DNA of 51,964 nt from Bacillota bacterium (GCA_023451115.1 JAEXFV010000117.1:1-51964); one strand, 5' to 3'. Counted from the stretch's first letter, positions 4,141 to 44,690 are shown. The notes: generated from the sequence alone by a model not told the origin. Translations and numbers: made by a program.

Positions 4141-5325
4141 TCAGCGCAATTTTTCCACAGCAAGCTTTAGGGCCTCCACCCGGTCCGTCTGCTCCCAGGG
4201 GAACGAAGAATTGCCAAAGTGGCCGTAGGCAGCAGTCTGGCGGTAGATTGGCCGGCGCAAGCCCAACATCTGGATAATGGCTTCTGGGCGCAGGTCAAAC
4301 ACGCTGGAAACCGCCTGAGCCAACAGATCATCGTTTACAGCACCGGTGCCCTGGGTATCTACCAGAATGCTTACAGGCTTTGCCACCCCTATGGCGTATG
4401 CAAGCTGAATTTCGCACCGCTGGGCCAAGCCTGCGGCCACAATGTTTTTTGCAACATATCGTGCTGCATAAGCGGCGCTGCGGTCCACCTTAGTAGGATC
4501 CTTTCCGGAAAATGCGCCGCCGCCATGGCGGGCATAGCCGCCGTAAGTGTCTACGATAATCTTGCGCCCGGTGAGGCCGGAATCGCCATGGGGGCCGCCG
4601 ATCACAAACCGCCCGGTGGGGTTTACCAAAAAACGGGTGTTTTCGTCCAGCAATTGTGCAGGGAGGACGGGGAGAATGACTTGGTCTACAATACCTTTTT
4701 CAATTTCCTGCTGCGTCACTTCCGGGTTATGCTGTGAAGAAATCACCACGGTATCCACCCGCACAGGCTTGCCGTTGATATACTCCACTGTAACCTGGGA
4801 CTTACCATCAGGCCGCAAAAAGGGCAGAATGCCTTCTTTTCGCACTTCGCTGAGCCTGCGGGTAAGGGCATGGGCCAGGGAAATGGGCAAGGGCATCAGT
4901 TCTGGGGTTTCATCGCAGGCAAACCCAAACATCATGCCCTGATCCCCGGCTCCAGTCGCCAAAGTATCCTGTATTTCCCCCTTTTTTGCCTCTAAAGACT
5001 TGTCCACACCCAAGGCAATGTCAGGGGATTGGCCGTCCAGCGCCACCAGCACTGCGCAGGTGTTGCCGTCAAAACCATAGTCAGCATTATCATAGCCGAT
5101 GTCTTTTACAACCTGGCGTACCAGGCCGGGAATGTCTACGTAGCAGGACGTAGTCACTTCCCCCATAACCAAAGCCATGCCGGTGGTGCAGGCGCATTCG
5201 CAGGCGACGCGGGCATTTGGATCCTGGGAGAGCATGGCGTCCAGCACTGCATCCGAAAGCTGGTCGCACACTTTATCGGGATGTCCTTCGGTTACGGATT
5301 CAGAGGTAAACAGCATTTTTTTCAT
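4141..5325 (-). CDS. metK: S-adenosylmethionine synthetase
   Basis: 394 aa with hallmark MetK motifs: [69 protein letters not shown]. Confidence 0.97.
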
Positions 5326-5388: not shown

Positions 5389-5545
5389 AAAAAAGCGCCC
5401 CGCGGAAGACGAGGCGTTCATTATAGCGGTATCGCTCATCTTCCGGCTATTATTCCTGATAGCCGTGGGAATTAGCACCTTGCGCATCAGCGTAGGTTGC
5501 CGGGTTTCATCGGGCCCGTCCCTCAACCACTCTTGATAAGGCTTA
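5389..5545 (-). promoter_or_regulatory. SAM-I (S-box) riboswitch with intrinsic terminator in the metK leader
   Basis: The minus strand reads CTTATCAAGAGTGGTTGAGGGACGGGCCCGATGAAACCCGGCAACC...AAGGTGCTAATTCC...GAAGATGAGCG, which matches the S-box core. It is followed by CGCCTCG-tcttccg-CGGGGCG and then CTTTTTT (5389-5416). Confidence 0.9.
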
Positions 5546-18427: not shown

Positions 18428-18478
18428 AATAGAAAAGAGAAATGGCCCGGTGGCAATTGCCACCGGGCCATTTTGTTG
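18428..18478. terminator. groEL terminator built on a perfect 30-nt palindrome
   Basis: ATGGCCCGGTGGCAA|TTGCCACCGGGCCAT spans 18441-18470. On the minus strand it is followed by TTCTCTTTTC, and on the + strand by TTTGTTG. Confidence 0.7.
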
Positions 18479-18501
18479 CAATTGAATTGGATTTACCGGG
18501 A

Positions 18502-20163
<1,662 letters not shown>

Positions 20164-20448
20164 CTATTCCACAACTGCCAGAATATCGTTCTGCCGTACG
20201 ACGATGTACTCTTCCCCGTCCAGCTTGACTTCCGTGCCGGCGTATTTGGAATAAATGACCTTGTCGCCTACGTGAACGTACATGGTTACTTCTTTGCCCT
20301 CTACTACGCCGCCGGGGCCAACTGCGATGATTTCGGCCATCTGGGGCTTTTCCTGCGCACTGGAAGTGAGCACGATGCCGCTCTTGGTGGTTTTCTCGGT
20401 CTCAAGGCTCTTAATGACAACCCGATCCGCCAAAGGCTTGAGTTTCAT
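20164..20448 (-). CDS. groS: Co-chaperonin GroES (Hsp10)
   Basis: 94 aa: MKLKPLADRVVIK...SGIVL..., located immediately upstream of groEL. Confidence 0.97.
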   Translation of the reverse strand: MKLKPLADRVVIKSLETEKTTKSGIVLTSSAQEKPQMAEIIAVGPGGVVEGKEVTMYVHVGDKVIYSKYAGTEVKLDGEEYIVVRQNDILAVVE

Positions 20449-20499
20449 AGTTGATGTACCTCCTTATATTCTGCCTGCTGCAATGATTACAATTTTGTT

Positions 20500-23592: not shown

Positions 23593-24876
23593 TCATATGG
23601 TTATTTTGCGCCCTGCGGAATATCGGCCGATTATCGCCTGATCATCTCCAAGGTACATCAAACGCTCCAGCCGTTCGGATATCGTGAGGGGGCGAGAGGG
23701 TGGCAGGGTGCTGTCGTCCAGCGCCAGGGCATGGAGTAGGTTCCCTTTTTGAAAACCGGGGCCTTCCCCAAAGTAAAGCTGGCCGGCGGAAGTAATGAGA
23801 TAAAACGCTTCCGCTACCGTGAGAAATGCCTCTTGTTGATTGGTCAGCAGCCAATTGCGTTTGGAGGCCCGGATAGCGGCCGCAGCCGTACCCAACATGG
23901 AAAGCTGAGCGCCGCCGGCAATATCCGAGCCTAAGGCAACGGATAAGCCCTCATTCAGCATCCGGCGTACTGGAGCGACACCGGTAGGGATGTTAATATT
24001 GCTGTCCGGGCAATGGGCCACCCATGCGCCGTGGTCTTTGATTGCCTGCCGCTCCTTTTCATCGGAGTATACGCAGTGGGCCATTACAGTGCCAGGGCCG
24101 AAAAGCCCGCAGGAGGCGTAACTTTCCCAATATTGGTGGCAATCGGGGCGCAGGGAACGCACCCATGCGTCTTCTTCCAGGTTTTCCGATAGGTGTGATT
24201 GCACCCGGAGGCCATATTCTTGCGCCAATTCCCCTAAGCCGCGCATCAGCTCATCTGAACAGGAGGGGGTAAACCGAGGCGTAAGCATGGGCGCAAGGTG
24301 CGGATATTTGCCCCGGCATTCTTCCACCCAACGTCGGGTTTCCAGCAGGGATTCCGCTGTGGTTTCCCGCAAGCTGTCAGGACAATTGCGATCCATATTC
24401 ACTTTGCCTACAAACCCGGTGACGCCTGCCTGTTCCAGCTCTTCCATCAGCACATGGGTAGCCTCCCGATGCACAGAGGAGAACATGCACACCCGGGTAG
24501 TCCCCTTGCAGACCAAAGCATATGCCAGATGGCGATAAACTTTGCGGGCAAAATCCAGATCACGAAACATCGCTTCTGTTTTAAAGGTATAGGTCTCCAG
24601 CCAGTCCAGCAACTGCAGATCCATGCCCAGGCCCAACATAGCATATTGTGGCCCATGCAGGTGTAAATCCGTGAAAGAGGGCACGATCAGGGCATCTCCA
24701 TAATCTTCCACAGGCAATCCTTCCCACTCTGGGCGCAAAACCGGAACGATATCCGAAATCACGCCATCCTCAACGAAAAGATAGCCATGTTGCAAAATTT
24801 CTAGGCTGCCGAAAACCGGAGCATGCACCAAATTGCCGCGAATAAGCATGGCTCCATGAAGTTGTTGCAGTTTCAT
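23593..24876 (-). CDS. guaD: Guanine deaminase (amidohydrolase superfamily)
   Basis: I chose the ATG at 24876 (AAGGAG 8 nt upstream). FTDLHLHGPQYAMLG...LLDWLETYTFKTE, GKVNMDRNCPD, TPRFTPSC, HLSEN and GSDIAGG run collinear with E. coli GuaD motifs. Confidence 0.84.
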   Translation of the reverse strand: MKLQQLHGAMLIRGNLVHAPVFGSLEILQHGYLFVEDGVISDIVPVLRPEWEGLPVEDYGDALIVPSFTDLHLHGPQYAMLGLGMDLQLLDWLETYTFKTEAMFRDLDFARKVYRHLAYALVCKGTTRVCMFSSVHREATHVLMEELEQAGVTGFVGKVNMDRNCPDSLRETTAESLLETRRWVEECRGKYPHLAPMLTPRFTPSCSDELMRGLGELAQEYGLRVQSHLSENLEEDAWVRSLRPDCHQYWESYASCGLFGPGTVMAHCVYSDEKERQAIKDHGAWVAHCPDSNINIPTGVAPVRRMLNEGLSVALGSDIAGGAQLSMLGTAAAAIRASKRNWLLTNQQEAFLTVAEAFYLITSAGQLYFGEGPGFQKGNLLHALALDDSTLPPSRPLTISERLERLMYLGDDQAIIGRYSAGRKITI

Positions 24877-24945
24877 CGTAATTGCTCCTTTTATGCCGCA
24901 TGCTATCATGGGGCGATATACCAAGTCGTTTGCCTTCATTCGAAA

Positions 24946-25542
24946 TCAGGGCAAAAAGTCCGCCGGTGAATCGATATCCAACAGTTCTTGCTCCTGTGAA
25001 ACTTCAATTAGCCTGAGCGCTTCCTCATGGGCCCGTATTACTGCGCTGCCCCCCGTATCCCCTTGTAGGGAGAGCAACTCGGGAAAATAAATCCGCGGGA
25101 AGATAGCAGGGTTGCCCCGTTTGCCATGGTAAGCCAAGGCTAGGATATGCTGGGGGCCTTTTTTCCATGCGTCCGCCAGAATAGTAATGCTTTGGGCATT
25201 CAGGTAGGGCTGATCACCCACGCAAAACATACAGCCGCTCAGGTTGGGGCAGGCAGTAAGCAAGGCCCCCAGCCCCAGCCGGATGCTGCTGCTTACCCCC
25301 TGCTTTGGATCAGGGTTAAAAACGGTTAAAAACCCCCGCTCAATCGCCAGATCCGCTACCGGCTGATATTGGGTAACCACCATTACCGGTGAAAGGCCGC
25401 TGGCCTGCAGCGCATCCATCCCATAGGCAATGATTGGCTTGCCGTTTAAAGGCTGTAGCAGCTTGTTTTTACCAAATCGGGCGGCATTGCCTGCTGCCAT
25501 CAGCACGCAACCCAAAGTTGGAAGAAGGGCAGAGGAGCTCAT
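24946..25542 (-). CDS. MobA/MocA-like nucleotidyltransferase (molybdenum cofactor cytidylyl/guanylyl-transferase family)
   Basis: VLMAAGNAARFGKNKLLQPLNGKPI is the N-terminal NTP-transferase motif, and GDQP appears later. The start overlaps the upstream stop codon (ATGA). Confidence 0.78.
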   Translation of the reverse strand: MSSSALLPTLGCVLMAAGNAARFGKNKLLQPLNGKPIIAYGMDALQASGLSPVMVVTQYQPVADLAIERGFLTVFNPDPKQGVSSSIRLGLGALLTACPNLSGCMFCVGDQPYLNAQSITILADAWKKGPQHILALAYHGKRGNPAIFPRIYFPELLSLQGDTGGSAVIRAHEEALRLIEVSQEQELLDIDSPADFLP

Positions 25543-26906
25543 TGGATTTGCCCTGACGGGTGGCGGTGCACATACTGGCCCTTGCCAGGCGCCACCACCG
25601 TGCCGTTTTGTACCACATGCTGTCCTCTGAGCAGCACATCCCTGGCGTAGCCCTGCACTGGGAATCCTTCAAATGGGGTATTGTCGCAATGATGGGCTAA
25701 GGTCTTATGGGAAAGAACCTCTTGATGATCCGGGTCCCATATCACAATATCGGCATCTGCGCCTGGAACAATTGCGCCTTTTTCCGGCAGCATGCCGAAT
25801 AAGCTTGCCGCATTGGTGGAAAGAAGCTGGGCCATCTGCGGCAGGGTAATGCGGCCAGCCAGTACACCATAGGTGTAGATCAGCTGCGCACGGGTCTGAA
25901 CGCCTGCGCCCCCATTGGGGATCAGGGAAAAGTCGTCCTTGCCCAGGGCTTTGTCGGCCATGGTGAAGGGGCAGTGATCCGTGCCAATGGTTTGAATGGC
26001 GGCGCTTTGCAACCCTGCCCACAAGGCCTCGTTGTCTTCCTTCTTGCGCAGCGGCGGAGACATGACGAATTTCGCCCCATCCGGGTCCGCGTAACGGCTG
26101 TCATCCAATAATAAATATTGCGGGCAGGTCTCCAAATAGACCTGTTGGCCCCGTTTGCGGGCAAGCTCAGCCTCCAACAGCCCTTGCGCAGTGGATAGAT
26201 GTACGATATACGCCGGAGCCTTTGCCAACTCTGCCAGCCGCAAATAGCGGTTTACAGCTTCTGCTTCCATGGGACCGGGGCGGGAGGCCGGGTGCCCGGT
26301 AGGGTCAGTATGGCCCAATGCTTTCTGTTCCTCAATCATAGCCAACAGCAAATCCCAGTTTTCACAATGCATGCCGATCAAACAGCCTTTGTCCCGGGTA
26401 TACTTCAGGGCGCGGTAGATGGCCCCGTCATCCATTTTCAGCCCGTCATATACCATGTACATTTTATAGGAAGTGACCCCTTGTTCCGTCATGCGTGGGA
26501 TTTCAGCGGCAACGTCGGCATCCCAACGGGCAATGGCCATGTGAAAGCCGTAATCACAGGAACTGCCCTGGGCTTTTTTATGCCATTGCTCCAAGGCGGT
26601 CTGCAGGGTACCGTCACGCTGTTGGGTAGCAAAATCCAGTACTGTGGTAGTGCCGCCTAACAAGGCTGCTTTGGTGCCTGTAACAAAATCGTCAGCGGCG
26701 GTGGCGGTGGCAAGCTCCAGGTCAAAATGGGTGTGGGTGTCGATAAACCCAGGAAAAACCAGGCAGCCGCCTGCGTCGAGAACAGTAGCGCCATCACACT
26801 TGAGGCCCGGGCTTACGGCTGCAATTTTTCCCTGCCGCACCAGCACATCCGCCTGCCATACTCCGTTGGGGAGCACCACTTGGCCGTTTTTAATTAGCAT
26901 GCACAT
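25539..26906 (-). CDS. Cyclic amidohydrolase of the dihydropyrimidinase / D-hydantoinase (HyuA/YgeZ-like) family
   Basis: 455 aa: GFIDTHTHFDL, SYKMYMVY (carboxylated-Lys context), HCEN, VHLS and GTDHCPF. Confidence 0.86.
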   Translation of the reverse strand: MCMLIKNGQVVLPNGVWQADVLVRQGKIAAVSPGLKCDGATVLDAGGCLVFPGFIDTHTHFDLELATATAADDFVTGTKAALLGGTTTVLDFATQQRDGTLQTALEQWHKKAQGSSCDYGFHMAIARWDADVAAEIPRMTEQGVTSYKMYMVYDGLKMDDGAIYRALKYTRDKGCLIGMHCENWDLLLAMIEEQKALGHTDPTGHPASRPGPMEAEAVNRYLRLAELAKAPAYIVHLSTAQGLLEAELARKRGQQVYLETCPQYLLLDDSRYADPDGAKFVMSPPLRKKEDNEALWAGLQSAAIQTIGTDHCPFTMADKALGKDDFSLIPNGGAGVQTRAQLIYTYGVLAGRITLPQMAQLLSTNAASLFGMLPEKGAIVPGADADIVIWDPDHQEVLSHKTLAHHCDNTPFEGFPVQGYARDVLLRGQHVVQNGTVVAPGKGQYVHRHPSGQIQ

Positions 26907-26961
26907 ACGATTTCCCTCCCTAATTAAACAATGATATCGATCGTTTGATACAATGGAAATC

Positions 26962-27091
26962 TAAAACAAAAAAAGCACCCAACCGCAGGGAAACACGCTT
27001 CCTGCAGAGGGGCCCTCATAGCGGAACATATGTATTGCGGCTGTTCCGTAGAAACATTTGCGCCATCAAAAGCAAATCTATATGAGAGGCC
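26962..27091 (-). promoter_or_regulatory. Purine (guanine-class) riboswitch variant plus intrinsic terminator, in the leader of the hydantoinase-like/MocA/guaD operon
   Basis: The minus strand reads CTCTCATA-TAG-ATTTGC-ttttgatggc-GCAAAT-GTTTCTAC-GGAACA-gccgcaatacata-TGTTCC-GC-TATGAGGG. This gives P1, P2 and P3, an exact J2/3 GUUUCUAC, and a C at the specificity position. It is followed by GCCCCTCTGCAGGGAA-gcgtgt-TTCCCTGCGGTTGGGTGC and TTTTTTT. Confidence 0.72.
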
Positions 27092-27264
27092 ATCGCCGAC
27101 AAAAAAAATTTAAAAAATTTATTCCGTACATTCTTTGTATTGTCAGCAACAAACATTCATTCTTTTATGATAGTTTATCATCCTTTTTTTTAGATTACAA
27201 TAGCCCCACCGTATTTTCTCGGCATACTGGAGATTTCCCCTCTTTTCAGAGACTTTGTACGCCC

Positions 27265-27292
27265 TTGCCGAATTTGTTTATTCTGCTATACT
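27265..27292 (+). promoter_or_regulatory. Putative sigma-A promoter of the ade-xdh operon
   Basis: TTGCCG, a 16 nt spacer and TATACT lie about 25 nt upstream of the ade ATG. Confidence 0.35.
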
Positions 27293-43062: not shown

Positions 43063-44454
43063 TTATTCCAAGGAAGATTCCTTTTCTTTGCTGCCGCATG
43101 CCGAGGCGATTACCAGCCCGGATAAGGCAATCAACGCCATGACGTTAGGCAATACCATGAGCTGATTAAACATGTCCGTTAATTCCCAAACCAAATCGTT
43201 GGATAAGCAAGACCCTAGGAAAATAAAACCTATGGCCAAAATAGAGTAAATGAGATTACCCTTTTTCCCAAACAAATAATTCATATTAATGCGTCCGAAC
43301 AGGTTCAAACTGATAATGGTGGAGAAGGCAAAGAACAGCAGGCAAACCGCCACAAAGCCATTGCCCAGCCCTGCTCCTAACACGCTGGAAAAGGCTAACT
43401 GGGCCATATTGGTTTTCACTACTCCCTGGGCAGTTCCGCTTGCCAGGATACCGTTGCCAGCATAAAGGGTGGAAATGACCACGAGCGCCGTCATGGTAAG
43501 GACTACAAACGTGTCGATAAACACCCCAATCATAGCCACTACGCCTTGTTCATGTGGCGTTTTTACTTTTGCCATGGCATGGGCATGGGGGGTGGAACCC
43601 ATACCGGCCTCATTGGAAAACAGCCCCCGCTTTACGCCTTGGCTGATTGCAGTTTTTAGGGCGTATCCAATGCCCCCGCCAATAATAGCATTGGGAACAA
43701 AAGCATATTTGAAAATCATGCCGAATGTTTCCGGTATATACTGGATGCGGGCAATAAGAACCGCCAAACTGCCAATCAAATAGAATCCCGCCATAATGGG
43801 CACTAATTTTTCTGTAACCGAAGCAATGCGCTGCATGCCGCCAATGAAAATAAATGCTGCCAAAGCGGATACGATTAGGCCCATAACCCAGGTGGGGATA
43901 GAGAAAGCGTTATTGCAGGCTTCGCTGATGGAATTGGATTGCACCATGGAGCCCATAAATCCCAAAGCCAGGATAATGGCAACCGAGAAGAAGCCTGCCA
44001 GGATCTTGCCAAACCGGCCGTGGAACGCAGCTTTGATATAATAGACCGGGCCGCCTAAAATAGAACCGTCTTCACTTACTATGCGGGTTTTCTGAGCCAA
44101 TACGGCCTCGGAATAGATGGTTGCCATGCCGAAGAAGGCAATGACCCACATCCAGAAAATAGCGCCAGGGCCACCGATCAGGATTGCACCGCAAGCGCCC
44201 ACAATATTTCCTGTGCCAACTTGTGCTGCGATTGCAGTTGTCAACGCCTGGAAGGAAGTCATTCCTCCTTGGTGCTTTCCACCATGAAGGCTAAAACCGC
44301 GGAACATATGGCGCCAACCTTCTCTAAAGCAGCGTATCTGTACAAATTTCGTGCGGATGGTAAAGTAGACGCCCGCGCCTACCAACAGGAGGATTAGGAT
44401 ATAGTCCGAAAGGTAGGCATTGATGGTCTGTACGATTGTGAGCAGTGTATCCAT
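43063..44454 (-). CDS. Alanine/glycine:cation symporter (AGCS family)
   Basis: I chose the ATG at 44454 (AAGGAG 7 nt upstream). FQALTTAIAAQVGTGNIVG, GGPGAIFWMW and SNEAGMGSTPHAHA are AGCS hallmarks. Confidence 0.9.
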   Translation of the reverse strand: MDTLLTIVQTINAYLSDYILILLLVGAGVYFTIRTKFVQIRCFREGWRHMFRGFSLHGGKHQGGMTSFQALTTAIAAQVGTGNIVGACGAILIGGPGAIFWMWVIAFFGMATIYSEAVLAQKTRIVSEDGSILGGPVYYIKAAFHGRFGKILAGFFSVAIILALGFMGSMVQSNSISEACNNAFSIPTWVMGLIVSALAAFIFIGGMQRIASVTEKLVPIMAGFYLIGSLAVLIARIQYIPETFGMIFKYAFVPNAIIGGGIGYALKTAISQGVKRGLFSNEAGMGSTPHAHAMAKVKTPHEQGVVAMIGVFIDTFVVLTMTALVVISTLYAGNGILASGTAQGVVKTNMAQLAFSSVLGAGLGNGFVAVCLLFFAFSTIISLNLFGRINMNYLFGKKGNLIYSILAIGFIFLGSCLSNDLVWELTDMFNQLMVLPNVMALIALSGLVIASACGSKEKESSLE

Positions 44455-44520
44455 AGTGTTCTCCTTTGCGTATATTTCGGAGCAAACAAAAACCGCTAGC
44501 ATTTTTGCCAGCAGCCCTAG

Positions 44521-44690
44521 AGAAAAAGACAGTGCATACGCCATGCTTGTTGCTTTAAACTGTATCTGCTCTGTCCTTTTGCCTGAGAGATTCGGCAATC
44601 GCCTTGCACCTTCGGCACTCGTATAAACGAGATTCTCCAGAGTTTCCTCCCACTCCAGTTTCGGCGAACCGATCCTAGAAGTTTCAACGG
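44521..44690 (-). promoter_or_regulatory. Glycine riboswitch (single complete aptamer) with an overlapping terminator
   Basis: The minus strand reads CTCTGGAGAATCTCG...CGAGTGCCGAAGGTGCAAGGCGATTGCCGAATCTCTCAGGCAAAAGGACAGAG (44569-44642). The P1 3' strand GACAGAGC doubles as the 5' arm of the terminator GACAGAGCAGATAC...GTATGCACTGTC followed by TTTTTCT. Confidence 0.85.

Follow-up and report, generated by a model that had tools for sequence, protein, structure and literature searches.

A genuine guanine-type purine aptamer precedes a purine-catabolic operon in the window, by which we mean the entire 51,964-nucleotide stretch of Bacillota DNA analyzed here. The aptamer has three stems and spans 27091-27011 of the minus strand; the genes behind it code for a hyuA-like hydantoinase, a mocA-like protein and a guanine deaminase. 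On balance, our findings lean slightly towards a guanine-I-type (C74) riboswitch that binds guanine and turns on the transcription of genes for purine breakdown.

Read along the minus strand, the element is GGCC-U-CUCAUA / UAG / AUUUGC-(UUUUGAUGGC)-GCAAAU / GUUUCUAC / GGAACA-(GCCGCAAUACAUA)-UGUUCC / GC / UAUGAG-GGCC, and its junctions of 3/8/2 nt have the canonical guanine-I lengths (Table 1; positions 22-74 follow xpt numbering). The preliminary description had reported a three-stem purine aptamer on this strand, a C at the guanine-specifying position and deviations in J1/2, J3/1 and L3. All of its sequence details are right, with C74 found at 27021 and G24, G73 and a 13-nt L3 as the deviations. 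A potential L2-L3 kissing loop (G37-C61 and G38-C60) would join a GG in L2 (GAUGGC) to a CC in L3 (GCCG...), both of which are conserved. The loop that carries this CC usually has about 7 nt, and its enlargement here may have a functional effect.

Table 1 Leader, aptamer, terminator and operon features in the window.
Feature	Position	Strand	Basis
Candidate sigma-70 promoter: TTGTAA (27200-27195), 17-nt spacer, extended -10 TGaTAAACT (27180-27172)	27172..27200	-	sequence inference
Conserved leader motif AAUGUACGGAAUAA, with a hairpin (~27150-27133) before it	27119..27132	-	recurrence in hyuA-type leaders
Purine (guanine-type) aptamer: extended P1, P2, P3 and three junctions	27011..27091	-	RF00167, R1, covariation
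P1, GGCC-U-CUCAUA with UAUGAG-GGCC	27091-27081 with 27020-27011	-	sequence
J1/2, UAG = U22-A23-G24 (G24 versus the usual A)	27080-27078	-	sequence
P2, AUUUGC/GCAAAU; L2 of 10 nt, UUUUGAUGGC	within 27091-27011	-	sequence
J2/3, GUUUCUAC = G46-U47-U48-U49-C50-U51-A52-C53 (U47 and U51 canonical)	27055-27048	-	sequence
P3, GGAACA/UGUUCC; enlarged L3 of 13 nt, GCCGCAAUACAUA	L3 27041-27029	-	sequence
J3/1, G73-C74; C74 (27021) is the guanine-specifying nucleotide	27022-27021	-	sequence
GGCC, 3' strand of the 4-bp P1 extension (partner 27091-27088), common to the terminator base	27011..27014	-	
Intrinsic terminator: imperfect hairpin (27013-26975) and U7 (26974-26968)	26968..27013	-	hairpin -18.4 kcal/mol
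Ribosome binding site GGGAGGG (26920-26914) and start ATG (26906-26904) of hyuA	26904..26920	-	sequence
hyuA-like D-hydantoinase/dihydropyrimidinase, first gene of the operon	25539..26906	-	TIGR02033, 534 bits (cutoff 393); Pfam Amidohydro_1
MocA/YgfJ-like molybdenum cofactor cytidylyltransferase	24946..25542	-	Pfam NTP_transf_3, 120 bits; TIGR03310, 155 bits (under the cutoff of 186)
Guanine deaminase family amidohydrolase	23593..24939	-	TIGR02967, 331 bits (under the cutoff of 375)

The purine riboswitch model RF00167 aligned to the window aptamer over the full model, with a score of 35.3 bits (E = 5e-4 in a 501-nt scan). In this cmsearch, which had been proposed as a check, the aptamer stayed below the family's gathering score of 37 bits. 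Due to this shortfall, a scan of the whole window at the gathering threshold did not report the purine aptamer and returned only SAM and glycine riboswitches elsewhere. The low score stems from the loop insertions and G73, and the core is not responsible for it. Among the members of the Rfam clan, Purine was the best match. A covariance model built from four orthologous leader sequences (R1) scored the window aptamer at 87.6 bits, and a search with R1 for further purine aptamers in the window and the loci compared found only one per locus. When 20 relatives were scanned with RF00167 (17 at the gathering threshold and 3 at an E-value threshold), 17 scored at or above the gathering score (37.4-61.8 bits), and L209, L004 and L007 fell under it. 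In a structural alignment of 44 sequences, 97.6% of the pair cells were paired and both P2 and P3 covaried, with compensatory changes at 11 of their 12 pairs. Only 0-1 of 500 shuffled controls matched the observed measures, and slid controls dropped to 33-55% paired. An independent ENA contig from a second assembly (L208) has a leader identical to that of the window, long L3 included, which rules out a misassembled loop. A match to the pntA sRNA just upstream (27096-27154) was set aside as chance (18 bits versus a gathering score of 54).

The other two riboswitches in the window are a SAM-I riboswitch (5433-5542, minus strand, 78.6 bits), in an ordinary arrangement upstream of metK for S-adenosylmethionine synthetase (4141-5325, minus strand), and a single glycine riboswitch aptamer (44561-44650, minus strand, 64.2 bits) upstream of a sodium:alanine symporter family gene (43063-44598, minus strand). 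The longest open reading frame of the symporter overlaps the glycine aptamer, and its true start must therefore be further downstream. A 670-aa open reading frame at 18442-20454 (plus strand) had no Pfam or NCBIfam match.

The genes behind the purine aptamer had been described as catabolic, and the hydantoinase, the MocA/YgfJ-like protein and the guanine deaminase family protein were indeed all found with Pfam and TIGRFAM models and among structural relatives. The best solved relative of the third gene product is 2i9u (E = 2.6e-108), which we take to be the guanine deaminase of C. acetobutylicum, followed by the human, yeast and E. coli guanine deaminases. Against the model for 8-oxoguanine deaminase this protein scores 94.6 bits (cutoff 532), versus 331 bits for guanine deaminase. 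The true start of guaD is probably ~25-30 codons past the start of its open reading frame. In the reductive 2,8-dioxopurine pathway, by which urate is degraded, ring opening of hydantoin was recently shown to be the task of HyuA (PMC12507026; bioRxiv 10.1101/2025.04.24.650524), and the window operon can therefore be considered catabolic. The divergent genes code for adenine deaminase, XdhA and a FAD-binding Xdh subunit. The divergent adenine deaminase-xdhA operon has an extended -10 promoter, TGCTATACT, at 27265-27292 (plus strand), the AGTATAGCA block of which is kept in L001, L004 and L007.

The same aptamer was found in the same place in loci with the same synteny (L001, L004, L008, L009, L068, L209, L210 and L211), and the arrangement of ade-xdhA diverging from hyuA-mocA-amidohydrolase is kept, aptamer included, in L001 and L004. 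HyuA homologues were at most 68% identical among the matches listed and came from metagenome-assembled genomes of uncultured Clostridia, Christensenellales and Oscillospiraceae. A protein-anchored genome scan found the aptamer in at least three loci (L008, L009 and L068) among the 80 matches listed, and none upstream of the more distant hyuA orthologs (≤59% identity) among the matches listed.

Parts of the leader upstream of the aptamer are also conserved. The promoter arrangement appears as TTGTCA-17-TGATAAACT in ortholog L001, and the hyuA-type leaders L001, L008, L132 and L211 share the motif AATGTACGG(A/C)AAAA at a distance of 20-45 nt before P1 (L211 has it twice). The motif is present once in the window. 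In hyuA-type leaders, ~70 nt separate the promoter from the aptamer and hold a structurally conserved hairpin, then AAUGUACGG(A/C)AAAA and an A/U-rich run. The hairpin and the AAUGUACGG stretch are absent from guaD-type leaders, and the corresponding part of the window (27119-27150) matched no Rfam family. This stretch could be a second regulatory site.

We also searched metagenomes with the pattern TATAR..GGCN6GTTTCTAC..GCTATGRG, which demanded G73 and one particular P1. We obtained 120 loci, among which 34 different cores were represented, and essentially all of them are genuine aptamers. At the 119 loci with a readable downstream open reading frame, it coded for a guanine deaminase homologue in 107 cases (~415-421 aa, 55-60% identical to that of the window) and for HyuA in 12. 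These loci form a coherent clade, yet they give no unbiased estimate of a link between G73 and catabolic genes, because the pattern imposed G73. Nor can G73 serve as a marker of the catabolic clade, a possibility we rejected since a canonical purD riboswitch has G73 and the hyuA ortholog L210 has A73. The metagenome elements score 37-62 bits against RF00167, so that Rfam already catches most of them, at low scores. One identical aptamer with an overlapping terminator was present in 59 contigs (L088 and 58 others, e.g., L097-L163), directly preceding a 419-aa guanine deaminase homologue (MKILKGNLVSAP...). Its recurrence, mostly in human-gut assemblies, indicates that it belongs to a common gut organism. 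The window element is a member of a clade from uncultured gut and rumen Clostridia in which the aptamer fronts guaD or hyuA-mocA-guaD.

Guanine is the likely ligand, as far as the sequence of the binding pocket allows us to infer. The nucleotides that contact guanine (U22, U47, U51 and C74) are all present in the window and are unvarying in the family alignment (n=44), with A23 nearly or fully so. C74 is found in all 44 members, and J2/3 is GUUUCUAC throughout, bar one U48C and one A52G. The hallmarks of the related classes are absent from the window. Xanthine-II aptamers combine U51G with a two-nucleotide J2-3 insertion and a J3-1 insertion, and guanine-II aptamers combine a one-nucleotide J2-3 insertion with the same J3-1 insertion (PMC9295807); in the window, J2/3 is exactly GUUUCUAC, J3/1 has 2 nt and all junction lengths are canonical. 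The 8-oxoguanine class has lost U47 and is always upstream of an 8-oxoguanine deaminase gene (PMC10556655), whereas the UUU at 47-49 is whole here. The adenine hallmark, U74, is replaced by C74. In the 2'-dG classes, altered J2-3 and other junction nucleotides form a deoxyribose pocket, and 2'-dG-III, which is associated with a nucleoside hydrolase gene, has changes in all three junctions (PMC9295807, PMC10556655); none of the 2'-dG I-III hallmarks was found in the window, where J2/3 is canonical and the best clan match is Purine.

The deviations of the window aptamer had been taken to suggest a variant with shifted specificity that may sense a degradation intermediate. On this reading, G24, G73 and the enlarged L3 would reshape the pocket for xanthine, hypoxanthine, urate, 2,8-dioxopurine or 8-oxoguanine. 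Such a sensor would suit the catabolic gene context and the low Rfam scores of the clade (35-62 bits versus about 75 for a canonical example), and new-ligand variants of the same scaffold are well documented. In addition, A24G and A73G each abolish binding of 2-aminopurine in the xpt context (PMC2018637), and the pocket environment would hence differ. However, neither the ligand-contacting nucleotides nor the junction lengths have changed, and positions 24, 48 and 73 are the least conserved core positions of natural guanine aptamers (Mulhbacher and Lafontaine, PMC2018637). Positions 24 and 73 make no contact with the ligand, A24 being a spacer between G72 and A73, and A73 taking part only in a water-mediated triple (PMC2018637). 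Furthermore, the pbuG aptamer of L. monocytogenes naturally has G73 and binds 2-aminopurine normally (PMC2018637), and G73 is also found in a canonical purine riboswitch upstream of a purD-like gene (LKVLVVGNGGREHALSWKI...) in locus L187 (1172-1272, minus strand; RF00167 74.9 bits). The main gene associated with the clade codes for guanine deaminase, the substrate of which is guanine. Lack of conservation of the extended L3 among orthologues had been named in advance as grounds against the variant reading, and the loop indeed has 13 nt in the window lineage only, as against 5-9 nt in each of the 43 relatives. We therefore consider altered specificity quite unlikely and do not read the deviations as its signature.

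Of the 44 family members, 18 have a G at position 24 and 26 have an A. G73 is found in 43 of the 44, a figure biased by the demands of the metagenome pattern, and in 9 of 10 in the protein-anchored set. Relatives L009 and L068 have an extra nucleotide 5' of position 73 that is absent from the window. The loss of binding in xpt with A24G or A73G counts against assuming an xpt-like affinity for the window aptamer, and hypoxanthine or xanthine may possibly be bound, more weakly. A broader proposal is that the whole R24/G73 clade, long-L3 copy included, is a distinct sensor, either of low affinity or for a different purine such as xanthine, hypoxanthine or 2,8-dioxopurine, which acts as an ON switch for anaerobic purine catabolism in abundant gut Clostridia. 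We regard this as decidedly improbable; if true, it would add another specificity or affinity class inside RF00167.

Two relatives depart further from the canonical form. L004 (3837-3908) is best matched by the 2dG-II model of Rfam, at 40.8 bits versus a gathering score of 60, yet its J2/3 is the canonical GUUUCUAC, and the preference for this model is probably due to a high GC content of P2 and P3 together with a basal C-C mismatch in P3. At the hyuA ortholog in L007 (347-405), a degenerate aptamer retains P1, P3, G73 and C74, but P2 has shrunk to a GC-GCAA-GC tetraloop hairpin, so that an L2 able to kiss L3 is missing, and the J2/3 sequence is GUUUCUGC (A52G). Either this copy is in decay or it represents a minimised form of the aptamer.

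The terminators of the relatives overlap P1. In 48 of 51 unique leaders, the 5' arm of a terminator that reaches the U-tract takes 2-5 nt of the 3' strand of core P1, and the closest relatives of the window copy (L209, L210, L211 and L008) conform to this family pattern. The exceptions are L008, in which the U-tract was mis-detected and the overlap is present, L103, and the purD control L187. The latter, a biosynthetic leader, has a long expression platform without overlap between P1 and terminator and can be considered a natural control. In the unconstrained minimum free energy (MFE) folds of most relatives (e.g., L001, L104, L119, L132 and L088), P1 is not formed, and its 3' strand supplies part of the 5' arm of a full terminator. 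When P1 was forced in the 51 unique leaders, the leftover hairpin stopped 2-6 nt before the U-tract. The P1-formed and full-terminator states of these leaders differ by ~0-6 kcal/mol, which is within the range that a ligand can tip. No antiterminator was evident in the folds of relatives, and with P1 blocked the full terminator formed. The modeled platforms of the relatives are thus fairly clearly of the ON type.

In the window itself, P1 extends to 10 bp through GGCC:GGCC past a bulged U, and the overlap with the terminator, put at about 1 nt in the preliminary description, amounts to 3-4 nt with this extension. A simple scan that allowed loops of 3-8 nt had missed the terminator, most likely on account of its 11-nt loop. 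Only the 4-bp extension competes with the terminator's three or four basal pairs. The extended P1 with a truncated terminator folds at -36.5 kcal/mol, the 6-bp P1 with the full terminator at -33.4 kcal/mol and the full terminator with no P1 at -29.2 kcal/mol. With 10 more 5' nucleotides, the 6-bp P1 and the full terminator together are the MFE structure (-41.6 kcal/mol), and the pair probability of the P1 extension is only ~5%, owing to competition from a small GGC/GCC hairpin upstream that can take up the 5' GGCC. A 6-bp core P1 is compatible with the full terminator, and the case for ON switching by the window copy is therefore built on kinetics and homology rather than on the fold. The P1 extension forms ~35 nt before the 3' arm of the terminator is made, and the same competing extension is found in L001, L004 and L209. 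Our analysis makes it fairly probable that the window copy is an ON switch.

The coexistence of core P1 and full terminator in the MFE structure is also what would be expected if the aptamer switched weakly or not at all, with the terminator acting as a near-constitutive attenuator and regulation coming from another factor, for example at the conserved AAUGUACGG motif upstream in the same leader. The sub-threshold Rfam score and the abnormally long L3 fit this reading as well, as does the degenerate aptamer of ortholog L007, taken as decay within the lineage. Yet the window copy retains every core nucleotide and every stem, along with GG in L2 and CC in L3, the leader is preserved identically in the second assembly, close relatives retain both the aptamer and a terminator that overlaps P1, and the competing P1 extension is shared with relatives. 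We find such a loss of switching unlikely.

A classical OFF switch, in which the 3' half of the aptamer serves as antiterminator without ligand and guanine frees the terminator to repress the operon, would be in keeping with most guanine-I riboswitches, and pairings of UUCCGC with GC(A)GGAA and of L3 with the terminator (GCCGCA:UGCGGU) can be drawn in the window. Neither candidate pairing held up. Forcing the UUCCGC antiterminator costs ~6 kcal/mol relative to the MFE, and this pairing lacks conservation. The pseudoknot between L3 and the terminator 3' arm is at chance level, its complementarity being reached by 55% of shuffled L3 sequences and significantly enriched in 0 of 39 unique leaders (including the window's own, as the identical L208). 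Relatives with P1 blocked form the full terminator rather than an antiterminator, and it is physiologically implausible that guanine would repress its own deaminase. OFF switching is thus very unlikely. The preliminary description had rightly seen that an OFF switch would make little sense for a guanine deaminase operon, but the paradox it raised dissolves given the ON-type platforms of the family.

In the ON switch that we favor, the strong terminator would form by default up to the U-tract and transcription would halt before hyuA. Ligand binding would lock the junction and P1, and so withhold the P1 3' strand from the terminator, this strand being the 4-bp GGCC extension in the window and 2-5 nt of core P1 in relatives. 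Deprived of its basal pairs by the U-tract, the terminator would fail and RNA polymerase would read into hyuA, mocA and guaD. An excess of guanine would in this manner induce its own catabolism.

Comparison with known systems places the element within guanine-I (RF00167; B. subtilis xpt-pbuX), with which it shares the three-stem junction, U22, GUUUCUAC, C74, the 3/8/2-nt junction lengths and the potential kissing loop between L2 GG and L3 CC. It differs from xpt in having G24 and G73 instead of A24 and A73, and P2 closed by A25-U45 instead of U25-A45. Unlike guanine-I riboswitches in general, it has a 13-nt L3 (usually 7) and a 10-nt L2, its genes are catabolic rather than for salvage, biosynthesis or transport, and its terminator abuts and overlaps P1 with no separate antiterminator, which predicts ON rather than the usual OFF behavior. 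The ssnA-associated guanine aptamer of B. halodurans is guanine-specific with an affinity of ~414 nM, roughly 100-fold weaker than xpt (Mulhbacher & Lafontaine 2007, PMC2018637). Like the window element it is of the guanine class, fronts an amidohydrolase of the guanine-deaminase/SsnA superfamily and has an unusual J3/1, but, by the description in that paper, it has an extra nucleotide 5' of 73 that the window lacks. Such weak binding would be fitting for a switch that controls catabolism.

The ON principle predicted here is that of the B. subtilis pbuE (ydhL) adenine riboswitch, which has the same scaffold and in which ligand-stabilised P1 withholds the 5' arm of an intrinsic terminator (see also PMC7707468). 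That riboswitch differs in having U74, in being adenine-specific and in controlling an efflux pump. There, a far larger part of the aptamer (P1 and P3) is shared with the terminator. ON switching with terminators that overlap the aptamer has also been predicted or shown for guanine-II, xanthine-II, 2'-dG-III and 8-oxoguanine riboswitches, several of which control purine-degradation genes (Hamal Dhakal et al. 2022, 2023; Breaker laboratory). These classes share the scaffold and the occurrence in Firmicutes with the window element, but each is defined by junction changes (or loss of U47) that the window lacks. The RF00167 aptamer, the ON mechanism and an ssnA-associated example (2007) are therefore already known. 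In the literature covered by our search, we came across no account of guanine-I riboswitches acting as ON switches for guaD, hyuA or ssnA, and the 2025 reports on the reductive urate pathway (PMC12507026; bioRxiv 10.1101/2025.04.24.650524) do not mention riboswitches. The window element would be an under-threshold copy with an unusual L3 in an apparently ON-type, catabolism-associated clade.

The guanine-I scaffold, usually described as switching off salvage and biosynthesis genes, is also used with an overlapping terminator. Copies with a long loop sit just under the Rfam threshold and so go unannotated, and a deviation at position 24 or 73 is not to be taken as evidence for a new ligand. Gut and rumen Clostridia appear to use the overlapping-terminator form of the scaffold to induce operons for guanine deaminase and hyuA, and human-gut metagenomes very commonly contain one of these leaders. 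The finding is relevant to the question of how the recently worked-out pathway of anaerobic purine and urate degradation is controlled in gut bacteria.
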